Shown: piece by piece, positions 16,238 to 64,000 of the stretch
How the letters are laid out: each line of letters starts with the position of its first letter
How positions within the stretch are numbered: the stretch's first letter is position 1
Origin: Escherichia coli
GTDB taxonomy: Bacteria; Pseudomonadota; Gammaproteobacteria; Enterobacterales; Enterobacteriaceae
Length of the DNA: 64,000 nucleotides
NCBI RefSeq assembly: GCF_024502345.1
Contig: NZ_JALDNN010000001.1
Direction: 5' to 3' (one strand)
Position numbers and translations under genes: made by a program
Notes under the pieces: generated by a model
The model's database searches: none
Told to the model about the DNA's origin: nothing
The model's input: only the letters and a program-made list of their open reading frames with translations

Positions 16238-17209
16238 TTAATGACAGTTCGGAATATCAGCATCAGTGAGTTGGGTTGCCGCCAGCACAATCTCACGTTC
16301 AAAGCCCTGCTCCAGCATGCGCAAGGCAATTTTAATGGCTTGCTCATGCATGCCTTCCTGCAAACCTTCTAATTTACCTTTCTGCAGACCCTCCAATTTA
16401 CCTTGCTGCAAACCTTCTAATTTACCTTCCTGCCAACCAATTTGATGTCCTTCCTGCCGTAGCCGTTCAGCAATAGTCATTAATCTCTCCTTTTGTAGTG
16501 GTGAACGTTCGGCAATCTCCTGAATAAAACGGGTGAAACGGGAGGTATCGCCGCATTGCAGCAGATAATTAAACAGTGTTTGTAGCTGGCTGTCATTAGT
16601 GAAGCCTCTAACCAAAAGCGTGGTGATCCTGTCGACCATACCGATTAAATCGCGGTCGCGAATATGCTTTTGAATCAGTTCCAGCAGAGCTATACGCCGA
16701 TGTTGCATGATCTCATCGTCAGGTACGATGGTGATATCCACCAACGGAAAAGCTTCGGTGTACAACTGCCGGGCAAGTTGCGGATCGTCAAACTCATCCA
16801 GCCAGTTGAGTGAGTACGGGTAGGGCGAGGTTTCGCCATGATAAAACAGCAACGGCACCACCAGCTGGACTCTGTCATAGCCTTTGTCCAGGTGACGCTG
16901 CATGGCGGCAGTGGCATAGCGCATTAGCCGAAAAGCCATATTCTTTTCTGCAGAGCTTTGATGTTCAATCACGCAGTAGATATAGCCGTCACCGTCGCTG
17001 GTTTCCACGGACCACAAAACATCCGAGTAGTAAGCGCGTAAACTTTTTTCAATAAAACTAGTGGGTTCCAGGCGTAAGGTTTGCAGGTTGCAAAGCTTGC
17101 GCAGTGGTTCTGGTAAATGTATTTCGAGAAAATCCCGTGCGGTTTCGGGTGTGAACATAAAGGTTTTAAACACCGCATCATGCGGGGAGGAGGTTGTTGA
17201 TTCGGTCAT
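16238..17209 (-). CDS. rpnE: Rpn-family recombination-promoting nuclease / transposase_31-like protein RpnE (YfaD), 323 aa
   Basis: ORF 323 aa ([19 protein letters not shown]...), recognised as YhgA/Rpn family; C-terminus contains the GKLEGLQ repeat. Confidence 0.85.
16361..16432 (-). repeat. three in-frame tandem copies of a 24-bp unit (CAAACCTTCTAATTTACCTTCCTG and variants) in the rpnE 3' region, encoding (Q/K/E)GKLEGLQ x3
   Basis: Seen directly: units at 16361-16384, 16385-16408 and 16409-16432; ypaA carries a single copy (16154-16177). Confidence 0.9.
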
Positions 17210-28639: not shown

Positions 28640-28775
28640 TGTTGGGAGTTTAATGCCGGATAAGGCATTTTACGCCGCATCCTGTGCCTGATGCGACGCT
28701 GGCGCGTCTTATCAGGCCTACAAACCGAGCCGTAGGCCTGATAAGGCGTTTACGCCGCATCCGGCATCTCAATAT
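28640..28775. repeat. REP/BIME element in the nrdA-nrdB intergenic region
   Basis: Imperfect palindromes of the GCCTGATGCGACGCT / GCCGGATGCGGCGTAAACGCCTTATC(A/C)GGCCTAC type, characteristic of E. coli REP sequences. Confidence 0.8.
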
Positions 28776-35509: not shown

Positions 35510-35640
35510 CGCTGTCTGACCATCACTATTGCCGGATGCGGCGTAAACGCCTTATCTGGCCTACGGAGAGCATTTGTAGGCCTGATAAGACGCGGCAAGC
35601 GTCGCATCAGGCATTGGCGCGGTTGCCGGATGAATCCAAA
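35510..35640. repeat. REP/BIME element between convergent yfaL and ubiG
   Basis: GCCGGATGCGGCGTAAACGCCTTATCTGGCCTAC and GTAGGCCTGATAAGACGCGGCAAGCGTCGCATCAGGC palindromes. Confidence 0.8.
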
Positions 35641-47794: not shown

Positions 47795-48571
47795 ATGCGA
47801 AAGATTTTTCTTCCGTTGTTACTGGTGGCGCTTTCGCCTGTCGCTCACAGTGAAGGTGTGCAGGAAGTCGAGATTGACGCACCGCTCTCAGGCTGGCATC
47901 CGGCAGAGGGCGAAGATGCCAGTTTTTCACAATCGATCAATTACCCGGCGTCGTCCGTCAATATGGCAGATGATCAAAATATCTCAGCGCAGATCCACGG
48001 CAAAATAAAGAATTATGCTGCGGCGGGTAAAGTTCAGCAGGGCCGGCTGGTGGTCAACGGTGCCAGTATGCCGCAGAGAATTGAATCCGATGGTTCATTT
48101 GCACGCCCTTATATTTTCACTGAAGGCAGCAACAGCGTGCAGGTCATCAGCCCAGATGGGCAAAGCCGACAAAAAATGCAGTTTTACTCAACGCTGGGCG
48201 CTGGAGTGATTCGCGCACGTTTACGGCTGGTTCTCTCGTGGGATACGGACAATACCGACCTCGATCTTCACGTTGTCACGCCCGATGGCGAACACGCCTG
48301 GTACGGTAACACCGTGCTGAAAAACAGTGGTGCACTGGATATGGATGTCACGACGGGGTATGGACCCGAGATTTTCGCCATGCCAGCGCCAGTTCACGGG
48401 CGCTATCAGGTGTATATCAACTACTACGGCGGGCGCAGCGAAACGGAATTAACCACCGCCCAACTGACGCTGATCACCGATGAAGGATCGGTCAATGAGA
48501 AACAGGAAACATTTATTGTACCGATGCGTAATGCTGGCGAGCTGACGCTGGTGAAAAGTTTTGACTGGTGA
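47795..48571 (+). CDS. yfaP: YfaP, DUF2135-like secreted protein (258 aa)
   Basis: ATG 47795, 4 nt after the yfaQ stop; signal peptide MRKIFLPLLLVALSPVAHSEG. Confidence 0.85.
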   Translation: MRKIFLPLLLVALSPVAHSEGVQEVEIDAPLSGWHPAEGEDASFSQSINYPASSVNMADDQNISAQIHGKIKNYAAAGKVQQGRLVVNGASMPQRIESDGSFARPYIFTEGSNSVQVISPDGQSRQKMQFYSTLGAGVIRARLRLVLSWDTDNTDLDLHVVTPDGEHAWYGNTVLKNSGALDMDVTTGYGPEIFAMPAPVHGRYQVYINYYGGRSETELTTAQLTLITDEGSVNEKQETFIVPMRNAGELTLVKSFDW

Positions 48572-48845
48572 TCCATCCCTTCACACAACCTGGCTCTTTC
48601 TTTTTTCAGATAAGACTGCTGGGCGATCTGCCGACGCCAGGATATAACCATTAACAAGCGTCGGCAGATTGGTCATTTCTTATTTTTCGTACTGAGAACT
48701 GTCCATTTACTCCGGCTTTCCTGGTTAAGGCAATGGTTTCTAAGCGATACGCATTATTGCAATGGTGACAGAACATTGCGGTAACACGCTTTTACCGCTA
48801 CCTTAACCACACTCCATCGGTCACCTGAGGCGGAGCTTCGCCCCT

Positions 48846-51695
48846 TTGAAATACCTTGCTTCTTTTCGTACAACCCTGAAAGCCTCGCGCTACATGTTCA
48901 GAGCATTGGCGTTAGTGCTCTGGCTGTTGATTGCTTTTTCATCCGTTTTTTACATCGTTAATGCGTTACATCAGCGAGAATCGGAAATTCGTCAGGAATT
49001 TAATCTGAGTTCCGATCAGGCTCAGCGCTTTATTCAACGCACCTCTGATGTGATGAAAGAGCTGAAGTACATCGCCGAAAATCGCTTATCGGCAGAAAAC
49101 GGTGTGCTTTCCCCGCGTGGACGAGAAACGCAGGCGGATGTGCCTGCGTTTGAACCGCTGTTTGCCGACTCCGATTGTTCAGCAATGAGTAACACCTGGC
49201 GAGGTTCTCTGGAGTCATTGGCGTGGTTTATGCGCTACTGGCGCGATAATTTTTCTGCGGCTTACGATCTCAATCGGGTATTTTTAATCGGCAGCGATAA
49301 CCTCTGCATGGCCAATTTCGGTCTGCGTGATATGCCAGTGGAACGCGATACCGCGTTGAAAGCGTTGCATGAACGCATCAATAAATATCGAAATGCACCA
49401 CAAGATGATAGCGGCAGTAACCTCTACTGGATCAGCGAAGGTCCGCGCCCTGGCGTCGGGTATTTTTACGCGTTGACGCCAGTTTATCTGGCGAACCGGT
49501 TGCAGGCGCTTTTGGGTGTCGAGCAGACCATCCGGATGGAGAATTTTTTCTTACCTGGTACGTTGCCGATGGGGGTTACCATTCTTGATGAAAATGGTCA
49601 TACCCTGATTTCGCTTACCGGACCAGAAAGCAAAATTAAGGGCGATCCTCGCTGGATGCAGGAACGCTCCTGGTTTGGCTATACGGAAGGGTTCCGGGAG
49701 CTGGTGCTGAAGAAAAATCTGCCACCCTCATCGCTAAGCATCGTTTATTCGGTGCCGGTTGATAAGGTGCTGGAACGCATTCGCATGTTGATCCTTAACG
49801 CAATTTTGCTGAATGTGCTTGCCGGAGCTGCATTGTTTACTCTCGCGCGGATGTACGAGCGGCGTATTTTCATTCCGGCGGAAAGCGACGCCCTGCGACT
49901 GGAAGAACATGAGCAGTTCAATCGCAAGATTGTCGCCTCCGCGCCAGTGGGTATCTGCATTTTGCGTACCGCTGATGGCGTCAATATTTTAAGTAACGAA
50001 CTGGCGCATACCTATCTCAATATGCTTACGCATGAGGACCGCCAACGACTGACGCAAATTATCTGTGGGCAGCAGGTCAATTTTGTTGATGTCCTGACCA
50101 GCAACAATACCAATCTGCAAATCAGCTTCGTCCATTCGCGCTATCGTAATGAAAACGTGGCCATTTGTGTGCTGGTGGATGTTTCTTCGCGCGTGAAGAT
50201 GGAAGAGTCGTTGCAGGAGATGGCACAAGCAGCGGAACAGGCGAGCCAGTCAAAATCGATGTTCCTTGCCACCGTCAGTCATGAGCTGCGAACGCCGCTG
50301 TATGGCATTATCGGTAACCTGGATCTGTTGCAAACCAAAGAGTTACCGAAAGGCGTCGATCGTCTGGTGACGGCAATGAACAACTCTTCCAGCCTGTTGT
50401 TGAAAATTATCAGCGATATTCTCGATTTCTCGAAGATTGAATCAGAACAGTTGAAGATCGAACCGCGTGAGTTTTCACCGCGTGAAGTGATGAACCACAT
50501 CACCGCCAACTATTTACCGCTGGTGGTACGCAAGCAGTTAGGCTTGTACTGCTTTATTGAACCGGATGTGCCAGTGGCTTTAAATGGCGACCCGATGCGT
50601 TTACAGCAGGTCATCTCCAACCTGTTGAGTAACGCCATAAAATTCACCGATACCGGCTGTATAGTTTTGCATGTTCGCGCTGATGGCGATTATCTCTCTA
50701 TCCGTGTTCGCGATACCGGCGTGGGGATACCGGCGAAAGAAGTGGTGCGCTTGTTTGATCCCTTCTTCCAGGTCGGAACGGGCGTACAGCGAAACTTCCA
50801 GGGGACCGGTCTGGGTCTGGCGATTTGTGAAAAACTGATCAGCATGATGGACGGCGACATCTCGGTAGATTCAGAACCGGGAATGGGCAGCCAGTTTACC
50901 GTGCGTATTCCGTTGTACGGCGCTCAGTACCCGCAGAAAAAAGGCGTGGAAGGGTTGAGTGGTAAACGCTGCTGGCTGGCGGTCCGCAATGCGTCGCTCT
51001 GTCAGTTCCTGGAAACCAGTTTGCAGCGCAGCGGCATCGTCGTAACAACATACGAAGGGCAGGAACCGACTCCCGAAGATGTGTTAATTACTGACGAGGT
51101 AGTGAGTAAAAAATGGCAGGGTAGAGCGGTAGTGACCTTCTGTCGTCGCCATATTGGTATTCCGCTGGAGAAAGCGCCAGGGGAGTGGGTACACAGTGTG
51201 GCTGCTCCGCATGAGCTACCGGCATTGTTGGCGCGTATTTATTTGATCGAGATGGAGAGCGACGATCCTGCTAACGCTCTGCCGTCGACGGACAAAGCGG
51301 TCAGCGATAATGACGATATGATGATTCTGGTCGTGGATGATCATCCGATTAACCGACGTCTGCTGGCAGATCAGTTGGGATCGTTGGGCTATCAATGTAA
51401 AACCGCGAATGATGGCGTCGATGCGCTTAATGTACTTAGCAAGAATCATATTGATATCGTGCTTAGCGACGTCAACATGCCAAATATGGATGGTTACCGC
51501 TTGACGCAACGCATTCGTCAGTTGGGACTGACGTTGCCGGTAATCGGAGTAACTGCTAATGCGTTGGCTGAAGAGAAGCAGCGGTGTCTGGAGTCCGGTA
51601 TGGACAGCTGCCTGTCGAAGCCGGTAACGCTGGATGTGATAAAACAGACGCTGACGGTATATGCCGAGAGGGTCAGGAAATCGCGGGAATCGTAG
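48846..51695 (+). CDS. rcsC: hybrid sensor histidine kinase RcsC (949 aa, TTG start)
   Basis: HisKA H-box SHELRTPLYGI, HATPase domain and C-terminal receiver (LVVDDHPINRRL...DVNMPNMDG). Confidence 0.96.
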   Translation: MKYLASFRTTLKASRYMFRALALVLWLLIAFSSVFYIVNALHQRESEIRQEFNLSSDQAQRFIQRTSDVMKELKYIAENRLSAENGVLSPRGRETQADVPAFEPLFADSDCSAMSNTWRGSLESLAWFMRYWRDNFSAAYDLNRVFLIGSDNLCMANFGLRDMPVERDTALKALHERINKYRNAPQDDSGSNLYWISEGPRPGVGYFYALTPVYLANRLQALLGVEQTIRMENFFLPGTLPMGVTILDENGHTLISLTGPESKIKGDPRWMQERSWFGYTEGFRELVLKKNLPPSSLSIVYSVPVDKVLERIRMLILNAILLNVLAGAALFTLARMYERRIFIPAESDALRLEEHEQFNRKIVASAPVGICILRTADGVNILSNELAHTYLNMLTHEDRQRLTQIICGQQVNFVDVLTSNNTNLQISFVHSRYRNENVAICVLVDVSSRVKMEESLQEMAQAAEQASQSKSMFLATVSHELRTPLYGIIGNLDLLQTKELPKGVDRLVTAMNNSSSLLLKIISDILDFSKIESEQLKIEPREFSPREVMNHITANYLPLVVRKQLGLYCFIEPDVPVALNGDPMRLQQVISNLLSNAIKFTDTGCIVLHVRADGDYLSIRVRDTGVGIPAKEVVRLFDPFFQVGTGVQRNFQGTGLGLAICEKLISMMDGDISVDSEPGMGSQFTVRIPLYGAQYPQKKGVEGLSGKRCWLAVRNASLCQFLETSLQRSGIVVTTYEGQEPTPEDVLITDEVVSKKWQGRAVVTFCRRHIGIPLEKAPGEWVHSVAAPHELPALLARIYLIEMESDDPANALPSTDKAVSDNDDMMILVVDDHPINRRLLADQLGSLGYQCKTANDGVDALNVLSKNHIDIVLSDVNMPNMDGYRLTQRIRQLGLTLPVIGVTANALAEEKQRCLESGMDSCLSKPVTLDVIKQTLTVYAERVRKSRES

Positions 51696-51893
51696 GACGG
51701 ATAAGGTGTTTATGCCGCATCCGGCATTCAGTGCAAATGCCAGATGCGACGCTGACGCGTCTTATCTGGCCTACTTTAATGTAATCTGTTGAAATAATGG
51801 GAATCGTAGGACGGATAAGGCGTTTACGCCGCATCCGGCAATCGGTGCAAATGCCAGATAAGACACTAACGCGTCTTATCTGGCCTACAGATG
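51685..51893. repeat. REP/BIME array between convergent rcsC and rcsB, organised as a 114-bp tandem duplication that includes the last 11 bp of rcsC
   Basis: GGGAATCGTAGGACGGATAAGG...GCCGCATCCGGCA...GCGTCTTATCTGGCCTAC occurs twice, starting at 51685 and 51799. Confidence 0.8.
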
Positions 51894-51894
51894 A

Positions 51895-52545
51895 TTAGTC
51901 TTTATCTGCCGGACTTAAGGTCACAGAAGAGAGATAATTCAGCAGGGCGATATCGTTCTCGACACCCAGCTTCATCATCGCAGATTTCTTCTGGCTACTG
52001 ATGGTTTTAATACTGCGGTTCAGCTTTTTAGCGATCTCGGTCACCAGGAAGCCTTCCGCAAACAGGCGCAGAACTTCACTCTCTTTTGGCGAGAGACGCT
52101 TGTCACCGTAACCACCAGCACTGATTTTTTCCAACAGGCGAGAAACGCTTTCCGGGGTAAATTTCTTCCCTTTCTGCAGCGCGGCGAGAGCTTTCGGCAG
52201 ATCGGTCGGTGCACCTTGTTTCAGCACGATCCCTTCGATATCCAGATCCAATACCGCACTAAGAATCGCCGGGTTGTTGTTCATGGTCAGAACAATAATC
52301 GACAGGCTTGGGAAATGGCGCTTGATGTACTTAATTAAGGTAATGCCATCGCCGTACTTATCGCCAGGCATGGAGAGATCGGTAATCAACACATGCGCAT
52401 CCAGTTTCGGCAGGTTGTTGATCAGTGCTGTAGAGTCTTCAAATTCGCCGACAACATTCACCCACTCAATTTGCTCAAGTGATTTGCGAATACCGAACAA
52501 GACTATCGGATGGTCATCGGCAATAATTACGTTCATATTGTTCAT
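51895..52545 (-). CDS. rcsB: response regulator RcsB, LuxR/FixJ family (216 aa)
   Basis: Start MNNMNVIIADDHPIVLFG at 52545; receiver domain plus C-terminal LuxR HTH; the six-frame ORF extends 15 codons upstream. Confidence 0.96.
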   Translation of the reverse strand: MNNMNVIIADDHPIVLFGIRKSLEQIEWVNVVGEFEDSTALINNLPKLDAHVLITDLSMPGDKYGDGITLIKYIKRHFPSLSIIVLTMNNNPAILSAVLDLDIEGIVLKQGAPTDLPKALAALQKGKKFTPESVSRLLEKISAGGYGDKRLSPKESEVLRLFAEGFLVTEIAKKLNRSIKTISSQKKSAMMKLGVENDIALLNYLSSVTLSPADKD

Positions 52546-55545: not shown

Positions 55546-55638
55546 AAAAAAAACCGGATGCGAGGCATCCGGTTGAAATAGGGGTAAACAGACATTCAGA
55601 AATGAATGACGGTAATAAATAAAGTTAATGATGATAGC
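55546..55638 (-). ncRNA. micF: MicF small regulatory RNA (antisense regulator of ompF mRNA), including its intrinsic terminator
   Basis: Minus-strand sequence GCTATCATCATTAACTTTATTTATTACCGTCATTCATTTCTGAATGTCTGTTTACCCCTATTTCAACCGGATGCCTCGCATCCGGTTTTTTTT matches MicF as I recall it; divergent from ompC. Confidence 0.9.
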
Positions 55639-55793
55639 GGGAGATATTCTAGTTGCGAGTGAAGGTTTTGTTTTGACATTCAGTGCTGTCAAATACTTAA
55701 GAATAAGTTATTGATTTTAACCTTGAATTATTATTGCTTGATGTTAGGTGCTTATTTCGCCATTCCGTAATAATCTTAAAAAGTTCCCTTGCA

Positions 55794-63629: not shown

Positions 63630-63660
63630 GCCACATCCGGCATGGTATGCCGGATGTGGC
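63630..63660 (+). terminator. perfect 14-bp inverted repeat (GCCACATCCGGCAT-GGT-ATGCCGGATGTGGC) immediately downstream of mqo; candidate terminator hairpin
   Basis: Seen directly; not followed by a strong T-run. Confidence 0.45.
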
Positions 63661-63665
63661 GTATG

Positions 63666-64000
63666 CTGATAAGACGCGCCAGCGTCGCATCAGGCAACCG
63701 GCTCGGGCGTTAGATGTCGGATGCGGCGTGACCGCCTTATCCGACCTACGGGGTGGAGCACTTCACAGCGGTGTAGGCCTGATAAGACGCGTCAGCGTCG
63801 CATCAGGCAACCGGCTCGGACGTTGGATGTCGGATGCGGCGTAACCGCCTTATCCGACCTACGGGGTGGAGCACTTCACAGCGGTGTAGGCCTGATAAGA
63901 CGCGTCAGCGTCGCATCAGGCAACCGGCTCGGACGTTGGATGTCGGATGCGGCGTAACCGACTTATTCGACCTACGGGGTGGAGCACTTCACAGCGGCGT
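63666..64000. repeat. BIME-type REP array: at least three tandem copies of a 113-bp unit, continuing beyond the window end
   Basis: Unit starts at 63666, 63779 and 63892; each contains REP palindromes (CTGATAAGACGCG(C/T)CAGCGTCGCATCAGGC, GGATGCGGCGT(A/G)ACCGCCTTATCCGACCTAC); explains the duplicated small ORFs in the six-frame track. Confidence 0.85.

Follow-up and report, generated by a model that had tools for sequence, protein, structure and literature searches.

The gap between the convergent genes rcsC and rcsB in Escherichia coli holds a two-unit array that, by its sequence, consists of inverted Y / Z2-like REP pairs and is BIME-2-like, and the second unit of which begins with a non-coding copy of the 3' end of rcsC. 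It is likely that this array was founded by one local copy, that it later changed by unequal exchange or slippage, and that it has a putative role as the shared 3' end of the two genes. The array was studied in a stretch of 64,000 nucleotides from an E. coli genome (contig NZ_JALDNN010000001.1), hereafter called the window. Alleles were counted in 5,426 complete E. coli genomes, and outgroups were reached through RcsC homologues, the corresponding look-up with the RcsB protein having returned E. coli alone.

The rcsC coding sequence (949 aa) is found at 48846..51695 on the plus strand and ends with a TAG stop codon (51693-51695). It was identified from the open reading frame list, RefSeq annotation of loci identical, or nearly so, to this one, and RcsC homologues. 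The coding sequence of rcsB (216 aa) lies at 51895..52545 on the minus strand, as given by the open reading frame list, the annotation of matching genomes and the translation, leaving a gap of 199 bp. A repeat search of the region found a single family of direct repeats, 51677-51774 and 51791-51888, each 98 nt long, 114 nt apart from start to start and 89% identical. When the rcsC-rcsB region was scanned at different lags, 82 of 90 positions matched at lag 114, and at most 39 at all other lags from 100 to 129. The periodicity that an earlier note on this DNA had expected a self-alignment to display is accordingly present, and the periodic block extends from 51677 to 51888, its left edge slightly beyond that of the 51685-51893 given in that note. 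By length the array amounts to 1.86 copies, and it is absent from the output of Tandem Repeats Finder.

The first unit starts at the left end of the repeat with the real last codons of rcsC, GAAATCGCGGGAATCGTAG (51677..51695, plus strand), as defined by the limit of the direct repeat and by homology to the rcsC ends of other genera. Since the rcsC reading frame ends at 51695, the first 19 nt of copy 1 are its last codons and stop, and the unit does begin inside rcsC, as had been proposed. A Y-type REP on the minus strand follows at 51692..51725 (three mismatches to the Y consensus, none expected by chance). Its body is intergenic, with a 4-nt overlap with rcsC that includes the stop codon; it thus sits flush on the gene, and its GTAGG tail provides the rcsC stop codon through the GTAG. 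Next come the 13-nt head-to-head linker ATTCAGTGCAAAT (51726..51738, read from the sequence and in register with 51840-51852) and a Z2-like REP on the plus strand (51739..51774, two mismatches to the Z2 consensus), which has GCCAGAT...ATCTGGC where the canonical stem has GCCTGAT...ATCAGGC. The units are separated by a locus-specific spacer of 16 nt, TTTAATGTAATCTGTT (51775..51790), which is not found after the last unit. The head of unit 2 is a non-coding pseudo-3' end of rcsC, GAAATAATGGGAATCGTAG (51791..51809, plus strand), identical to 51677-51695 at 16 of 19 positions. It is followed by a second minus-strand Y-type REP (51806..51839, one mismatch) and a second plus-strand Z2-like REP, GCCAGATAAGACACTAACGCGTCTTATCTGGCCTAC (51853..51888), placed by its register with 51739-51774, which ends 6 nt from the rcsB stop codon. 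This last REP has more than three mismatches to the Z2 consensus in its loop-side half, and it has perfect 12-nt inverted arms (51853-51864 and 51873-51884). Three short open reading frames inside the array (51584-51784, 51661-51792 and 51673-51834) are treated as repeat artefacts, and annotators should meet short reading frames called within the rcsC-rcsB array with the same caution. The RefSeq annotation of MG1655 lists no REP features.

Membership in the REP class follows from the consensus scan, where Y matches at 51692-51725 and 51806-51839 and a Z2 match at 51739-51774 were found and none was expected by chance. Both units have the BIME-2 layout, with a minus-strand Y and a plus-strand Z2-like REP 13 nt apart, and the tandem, variable copy number of BIME-2 is also seen, with two units in the window, one to four in the 5,426 E. 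coli genomes and five in E. albertii. The two units match the Rfam model naRNA4 (RF02564) on the plus strand at 51695..51771 and 51809..51885, scoring 70.4 and 73.7 bits where the gathering threshold is 59.5, a match that denotes likeness to the REP325 unit and nothing further. The nucleoid role that has been proposed for naRNA4 is disputed. BIME-1 elements (RIP/RIB) are made up of Y and Z1 REPs and have a long L linker carrying an IHF site. The rcsC-rcsB units have the 13-nt head-to-head linker and no long L linker. The only IHF match in the array (51782-51794, one mismatch) was rejected as a site because such matches occur at chance level, 49 in the window compared with 54 expected. A BIME-1 identity was thus rejected, and the suggestion in the earlier note that the array is a target for IHF has to be dropped. 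DNA gyrase binding has been established for BIME-2 generally, according to work cited in PMC3333891, and by analogy it is plausible that the Y/Z2 pairs at rcsC-rcsB bind the enzyme. The tail-to-tail linkers of BIME-2 elements are variable in both length and sequence (PMC3333891); the one at rcsC-rcsB is unique to the locus and unlike the linker of the array downstream of mqo.

In the favoured reading, a 98-nt segment made up of the last 19 nt of rcsC and the REP pair would have been copied once, 16 nt downstream of itself, in an ancestor common to E. coli, E. albertii and the other non-coli Escherichia examined, which would give the 114-bp period. Outside the REP, 12 of the 15 bases in the head of copy 2 match the rcsC end (P = 1.2e-5 at fixed offset). 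The head-to-head linkers of the two units match, and both units have the paired change in the Z2 stem (T/A to A/T), which is absent from the other Z2 copies in the window. The 43-nt junction between the units is confined to the rcsC-rcsB locus across the 5,426 genomes. Taken together, these features argue for a local duplication and not for two independent insertions. The earlier note had described a tandem duplication, and the 114-nt periodicity bears this out; the founding event does not look like a clean 114-bp duplication, however, since no second copy of the 16-nt spacer is present on either side. Judged from the sequences, the founding step seems to need something extra, whether a copy placed 16 nt downstream, a junction filler, or a terminal spacer that was later lost. 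Another odd feature, if the copies diverged gradually, is a clustered change of three nucleotides (CGC to AAT or ATT) that sets the pseudo-head apart from the real rcsC end in every lineage alike.

In genera lacking the array, rcsC ends with sequence homologous to the real rcsC end (GAAA-NCG-CGG-G..), which supports that coding sequence was copied into the array. Among the matches listed in the contig scan there was one non-coli Escherichia. E. albertii has five units with the pseudo-end and spacer, Escherichia sp. E2748 has two or three units with the spacer and pseudo-head, and both elements are kept in E. whittamii, Escherichia sp. MR and L008 (rcsC 91.6% identical in DNA). They are absent in E. 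fergusonii, Salmonella and about 30 other genera compared at rcsC-rcsB. As the pseudo-end and spacer are present in E. albertii and four other non-coli Escherichia and absent elsewhere, the coding capture was probably a single ancient event, and on this distribution the origin of the array appears datable to before the split between E. coli and E. albertii. The claim in the earlier note that the array grew by recombination that captured coding sequence is therefore upheld for the direction, from gene to array, but the capture was probably one old event, and later changes have added no further one.

An unlikely alternative reverses the order of events. The ancestral gap sequence would then comprise the spacer, the 'pseudo-head' and REP pair 2, and pair 1 would later have been copied into the rcsC end and joined at the microhomology GGGAATC, so that the incoming REP would have remade the end of the gene without any capture of coding sequence. 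Such an order would fit with the REP providing both the stop codon and the last codon of rcsC, and with the identity between the real end and the pseudo-end extending for only 7-11 nt beside GTAGG. Three bases farther upstream differ in every lineage, and the 5-nt match GAAAT that is then left over may be due to chance (about 3% by a binomial estimate). However, rcsC of E. fergusonii also ends with ..ACGTAGG in spite of having no array, suggesting that the REP tail at the stop codon is old. The E. fergusonii spacer, moreover, has no significant similarity to the spacer and pseudo-head: in five of six comparisons 884 to 1,985 of 2,000 shuffles were as good, and in the best one 95 of 2,000, uncorrected. 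The three differences among the 19 head positions are also in line with the overall divergence of 11% between the copies.

A second possibility is that a RAYT (TnpA-REP) added the units, cutting both a REP site and a C|T 'linker' located within rcsC and then joining the strands. In the model of Ton-Hoang et al. the amplification of BIMEs is driven by TnpA-REP, which in vitro cleaves at C|T linkers lying a certain distance away from the REP, yielding products with extra REP units (PMC3333891). Such an event could bring non-REP flank along, and 1 nt beyond the left limit of the repeat there is a C|T on the minus strand. The limit is nevertheless 1 nt off this C|T, and the base at that position differs in all lineages. 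A clean tandem unit would further be predicted, but the last unit lacks the spacer, and the joints of chimeric units are scattered through the homologous 98 nt instead of lying at defined cleavage sites. The six GTAGG tails found elsewhere in the window are preceded by neither AATC nor GGGAATC, and hence give no hint of a RAYT target preference. An origin of this kind is thus considered very unlikely. As far as sequence can tell, homologous exchange, replication slippage and strand transfer by a RAYT look alike. Independent arrival of two REP pairs, with the periodicity reflecting general REP similarity, could appeal to the expectation that any two nearby pairs of such dispersed repeats would agree over about 70 of 98 nt, but it is refuted, and left with next to no probability, by the match in the non-REP head, the linker and rare stem variant common to both pairs, the junction unique to the locus and the exact 114-nt period of arrays with three, four and five units.

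The later history of the locally founded array can be read from its alleles. One unit is found in 979 of the 5,426 E. coli genomes, two in about 4,400, three in 30 and four in 2, which agrees with the strain-to-strain length polymorphism that had been predicted, and which is also seen between mqo and eco (4.0 and 5.9 units). The spacer and pseudo-head are present in the 4,436 genomes with at least two units. They occur once per genome, unless the array belongs to the 32 with at least three units, and at the rcsC-rcsB locus only, and since they are restricted in this way they were rejected as a general BIME motif. In the one-unit alleles copy-1 and copy-2 markers are combined in chimeras, among which at least four different joints occur, and the middle units of longer arrays are chimeric as well; in XJ34, the middle unit has a copy-2 head on a copy-1 body. 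The joints are found at many positions within the homologous 98 nt, the longer arrays retain their period exactly, and throughout E. coli, E. albertii and the remaining non-coli Escherichia examined each extra unit begins with the conserved pseudo-head. The chimeric one-unit alleles and middle units point to unequal homologous exchange as the process by which the array loses and gains units. Judged from the sequences, its size has changed since its founding only as the 98-nt repeats exchanged unequally or slipped, giving one to five units and the chimeric ones. On the evidence of the joints, later size changes are exchanges between existing units, with nothing new captured.

No intrinsic terminator, in the form of a GC-rich stem-loop followed by a T run, was found on either strand between 51500 and 52100. 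Both strands fold far better than shuffled sequences (z = -4.2 and -7.5). In the other genera examined the rcsC-rcsB gap is 33-134 nt, and in most of them it contains a GC-rich terminator-like hairpin, often flanked by A and T runs, as read by eye. The array would thus stand where most other Enterobacteriaceae examined carry such a hairpin, and its REP hairpins would form the shared 3' end of the convergent transcripts, as a putative two-way terminator and/or a block to decay. Liang, Rudd and Deutscher are said to have found in 2015 that translation is damped by REPs lying no more than about 15 nt from a stop codon. With one stop codon overlapped by a REP and the other 6 nt from one, the array may also damp the translation termination of RcsC and RcsB. 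REPs between convergent genes have been described as two-way terminators or decay blocks, and genome-wide the effects of REPs are context-dependent with large variance (bioRxiv 10.64898/2026.03.23.713779); at rcsC-rcsB the role as terminator or decay block and any effect on translation are putative. A literature search found no published link between REPs and the rcsC-rcsB gap.

It would be a long shot to regard the number of units as a heritable dial on the Rcs envelope-stress phosphorelay, and the same applies to the separate idea that the founding event is an in vivo footprint of a RAYT cutting at a 'linker'. If the dial were real, each change between one and five units would alter the 3' UTR that rcsC shares with rcsB, and thereby termination, decay and stalling at the stop codons, and the dosage of RcsC and RcsB would differ among strains with no change in coding sequence or promoter. 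Should unit number affect RcsC or RcsB levels, the locus would be a small example of regulatory variation residing in a 3' UTR.

It is textbook knowledge that E. coli has REP/BIME arrays and that these grow in tandem and vary in copy number between strains. Both the phenomenon and the locus are already known, and the rcsC-rcsB array is of little importance beyond that locus. What is added here is a quantified allele spectrum, visible joints, a datable origin, a REP that provides a stop codon, and an array in the position usually held by a terminator-like hairpin in most other genera examined. Like the BIME-2 arrays between mqo and eco and between yjdM and yjdN (REP325), it has alternating inverted Y/Z2-type REPs with a short head-to-head linker, and its tandem copies are well conserved within the locus and variable in number between strains, as is known for tandem BIME-2 copies (PMC3333891). 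The units at rcsC-rcsB and mqo all match the Rfam model built on REP325. The rcsC-rcsB array differs from BIME-2 in its tail-to-tail linker, which consists of the 16-nt spacer and the decayed last 15 nt of rcsC before GTAG, from canonical Z2 in the paired T/A to A/T change of its stems, and from the mqo-eco array in its small size (1 to 5 units compared with 4 to 6).

An inverted REP pair is thought to be the mobile unit of REPINs. The core of the rcsC-rcsB unit is such a pair, as in REPINs and RAYT-mobilised doublets (Bertels and Rainey; Nunvar; Ton-Hoang), but in contrast to these the array grows and shrinks locally and driven by homology, with no sign of mobilisation, the joints being homologous and not site-specific. 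REPs in 3' UTRs are mRNA stabilisers, and the rcsC-rcsB array resembles them in lying between convergent genes with one stop codon overlapped and the other 6 nt away. With its 114-bp period, copy alleles from 1 to 5, exchange chimeras and gene conversion between units it is also similar to a bacterial minisatellite or VNTR, except that its unit derives from a palindrome dispersed in the genome and not from unique sequence.

The earlier note had listed four REP clusters in the window, two of them expanded. All four are present, with consensus matches at 28686-28765, 35531-35564, 51692-51839 and 63716-63921 and none expected by chance, and the two expanded ones are periodic, with 114 bp at rcsC and 113 bp at mqo. 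The array downstream of mqo (63664..64000, minus strand) consists of 113-bp pairs of Z2 and Y REPs and is cut by the end of the window, where Tandem Repeats Finder reports 2.9 copies with 97% matches, and it has three Rfam naRNA4 matches. The whole genomes give 4.0 to 5.9 units for this array, with 5.9 in MG1655 and 4.0 in strain 19SZHZ869Rt, the rcsC-rcsB region of which is identical to that of the window. The two remaining clusters are unexpanded: the one at 28640..28775 contains three REPs, and the one at 35531..35620 a Y and an inverted Z2, both identified by consensus matches and by reading the sequence.

The window comes from the E. coli chromosome. The rcsC gene ends at position 51695 on the plus strand (stop codon TAG at 51693-51695), and rcsB (51895-52545) and rcsD are on the minus strand, according to the ORF list and the matching genomes. 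rcsC and rcsB, both part of the Rcs phosphorelay, are thus convergent, and the observation is about the 199-bp gap that separates them. Strain 19SZHZ869Rt has the sequence of window positions 51400-52200 at 100% identity. Among 5,426 complete genomes of E. coli, 5,425 gave a hit for this segment, with at least 80% of it covered in 5,343. A direct-repeat search identified a single family, 51677-51774 and 51791-51888, with 98-nt copies spaced 114 nt apart and 89% identical. In a lag scan 82 of 90 positions matched at lag 114, and every other lag from 100 to 129 gave at most 39 matches. Tandem Repeats Finder does not list the array because it holds fewer than two full copies. Copy 1 starts 19 nt within rcsC, with GAAATCGCGGGAATCGTAG, and copy 2 starts with GAAATAATGGGAATCGTAG. 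The earlier note had described a periodic REP array at rcsC, a repeated unit beginning in the last rcsC codons, and three further REP clusters, all of which are present in the window; its observation is correct and its interpretation largely right.

Within each unit the Y-type REP (51692-51725 and 51806-51839) is on the minus strand and the Z2-like REP (51739-51774 and 51853-51888) on the plus strand, the two joined head to head by a 13-nt linker, and a 16-nt spacer, TTTAATGTAATCTGTT, separates the units. Both Y-type REPs and the first Z2-like one were placed by consensus match, the second Z2-like copy by the register of the repeat. The first REP has the rcsC stop codon in its GTAGG tail and the rcsB stop lies 6 nt beyond the end of the last, so the gap is nearly all REP. 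Both Z2-like copies carry a paired change, GCCAGAT...ATCTGGC and not GCCTGAT...ATCAGGC, that is absent from the remaining Z2 copies in the window. Both REP pairs pass the threshold of Rfam naRNA4, a model built on one REP325 unit, and so does every unit of longer rcsC arrays and of the array downstream of mqo. On both strands the array folds much better than shuffled controls.

An in-frame TAA lies 6 nt past the rcsC TAG, in GGATAAGG (51693-51704). The TAG is lost in some database RcsC variants, which end three residues later (..RESKAG; ..RDSLDG, 57 member sequences; among the compared proteins P0030, P0048 and P0061), and in one frameshifted variant the reading frame continues across the entire REP pair. 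Another RcsC labelled E. coli (P0001; 1,003 aa, 94% identity) has normal N- and C-terminal ends, and its length thus points to an internal insertion or duplication of ~54 aa.

As REPs are alike everywhere, the non-REP parts are the telling ones. Of the 15 bases preceding GTAGG, 12 are the same in both copies (P = 1.2e-5), and the two head-to-head linkers are alike at 11 of 13. A 43-nt probe was made of the spacer and the pseudo-head, the non-coding copy of the rcsC 3' end that heads each extra unit. It has matches in 4,436 of the 5,426 genomes, with a median of one per genome, all chromosomal and all in unannotated sequence; the rcsC-array linker is thus not a dispersed BIME motif. Judged by its sequence, the array is the product of local duplication.

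Copy number was surveyed in 5,426 genomes using three probes and E-value limits that let only full-length single alignments through. One unit was found in 979 genomes and two or more in 4,436, with three or more in 32 and four in 2; 11 of the 5,426 are unaccounted for in these counts. The rcsC-rcsB gaps of fetched examples (85, 199, 313 and 427 nt) form an exact 114-nt ladder, and the strain-to-strain length polymorphism named in the earlier note is borne out as a range of 1 to 4 units. At least four classes of joint are seen among eight one-unit alleles: the body is all copy-1 type in ETEC1738, SUISSEKPC3NDM5, CFSAN061768 and PRO_A-1551; PV0838 has a copy-1 left half and a copy-2 right half; PK12 has an ET729-type copy-1 start and changes to copy 2 at AATCGG; and in A25 and CFT073 the body is all copy-2 type after the real rcsC end. 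Middle units are mosaic in three- and four-unit arrays, that of XJ34 having a copy-1 body under a copy-2 head. Unit 2 of ET729 carries copy-1 markers, in which gene conversion between units is visible. Such joint classes and mosaic middle units are the products expected from repeated unequal homologous exchange or slippage, and recurrent events of this kind between the 98-nt repeats would generate the chimeric one-unit and middle units. For the founding event, amplification driven by the TnpA-REP transposase, RAYT (PMC3333891), is an unlikely alternative; it leaves the scattered homologous joints unexplained, and no RAYT target motif was seen at other REP tails in the window. The array is BIME-2-like, consisting of tandem REP pairs in variable copy number as in the known class (PMC3333891). 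Elements of this kind are well known, and the locus belongs to the best-studied of bacteria; the 19 nt captured from rcsC, the stop codon supplied by a REP and the allele spectrum are neat but unsurprising.

Relatives were reached via RcsC homologues, and the gaps were parsed from the retrieved contigs. E. albertii has five units in a 541-nt gap, each extra unit headed by GAAATAATGGGAATCGTAGG and preceded by the spacer ATTATTGTAATCTATT. Two genomes of Escherichia sp. E2748 with identical RcsC protein have two or three units (172 or 286 nt). In E. whittamii, Escherichia sp. MR and L008 (gaps of 146, 147 and 154 nt) the REPs are partly deleted and both spacer and pseudo-head are retained; L008 is a genome labelled E. 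coli but divergent, with an rcsC DNA identity of 91.6%. The 83-nt gap of E. fergusonii is without a pseudo-head and has one Y-like hairpin, its rcsC also ending in ..ACGTAGG; Salmonella has its own REP pair after a TAA stop (102 nt). The pseudo-head was found in none of ~30 other genera, where the gaps of 33-134 nt mostly hold a GC-rich hairpin, often with A and T runs alongside; REP-like palindromes occur in a few Citrobacter and Enterobacter gaps. In most genera at the compared loci L009-L037, outside Escherichia and Salmonella, there is a single such hairpin, often with A residues in a run on one side and T residues on the other, and it resembles a two-way intrinsic terminator; in Escherichia REPs are found there instead.

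In all genera compared the rcsC ends can be aligned with the real one (AAA-NCG-CGG-G..), which argues that copying ran from gene to array. Capture of the rcsC end was probably one event, before the split of E. coli and E. albertii. The reversed order, with unit 2 ancestral and a copied unit 1 entering the end of rcsC at a GGGAATC microhomology, is weaker and seems improbable. The same clustered three bases separate the pseudo-head from the real end in all lineages, as that order would allow, but E. fergusonii rcsC has the same CGTAGG gene end, and the similarity of the E. fergusonii spacer to spacer plus pseudo-head is not significant. For copying from gene to array, a clean 114-bp tandem duplication is rejected: it predicts 228 periodic bases and 212 were found, and the spacer has no partner at either 51661-51676 (rcsC codons; 3/16 match) or 51889-51904 (rcsB stop and last codons). 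The unpartnered spacer leaves three possible founding forms: a 98-nt copy set 16 nt downstream, a junction with added filler, or later loss of a terminal spacer. Two independent REP insertions are ruled out by the matching non-REP heads, the linkers and the locus-specific junction.

The array occupies the site where most other genera examined have a GC-rich, terminator-like hairpin, and a terminator scan of the rcsC-rcsB region gave no stem-plus-T-run terminator. Liang, Rudd and Deutscher reportedly found in 2015 that a REP less than ~15 nt from a stop codon lowers the output of the upstream gene via ribosome stalling; the rcsC and rcsB stops both lie within such a distance. The array is likely to act as a two-way terminator and/or decay block, possibly with stalling at both stops. 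A 2026 preprint (bioRxiv 10.64898/2026.03.23.713779) describes REPs between convergent genes as two-way terminators and/or decay blocks, and it lends no support to the earlier proposal that naRNA4 acts in nucleoid compaction. The suggestion that such arrays are IHF targets does not apply to the rcsC array, since the long L linker that marks BIME-1 is missing from its units and the sole IHF-like match is at chance level.

The expanded array reported downstream of mqo has the 113-bp period claimed for it, with 2.9 copies of a Z2 + Y unit up to the window end. It has 5.9 copies in MG1655 versus 4.0 in 19SZHZ869Rt, the strain that agrees fully with the window across rcsC-rcsB, and is thus polymorphic too. 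Its tail-to-tail linker motif (ACYGCTGTGAAGTGC..) starts right after the eco stop codon (positions 805-835 of compared locus L114; also L088), so the mqo-eco array abuts a gene end as well; no copy of mqo was found within it. A perfect hairpin with 14-nt arms, GCCACATCCGGCAT and ATGCCGGATGTGGC, and a 3-nt loop lies at 63630-63660, past the mqo stop and ahead of the first 113-bp unit.

The atoSCDAEB operon, found between yfaP and rcsC in K-12 MG1655 (~7.3 kb; locus L113), is absent from the window, where 274 nt (48572-48845) separate a yfaP-sized ORF of 258 aa (47795-48571) from the downstream rcsC. yfaP adjoins rcsC in E. albertii and E. whittamii too, and an atoS-like kinase lies beside rcsC in E. 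fergusonii and Escherichia sp. E2748. A 24-nt tandem repeat at 16353-16438 (3.6 copies, 83% matches) is in frame in a 323-aa ORF (16238-17209, minus strand) and would give an 8-residue protein repeat. The small RNA MicF is found at 55546-55639 on the minus strand (full-length Rfam match, 116.8 bits), its expected place beside ompC and rcsD.
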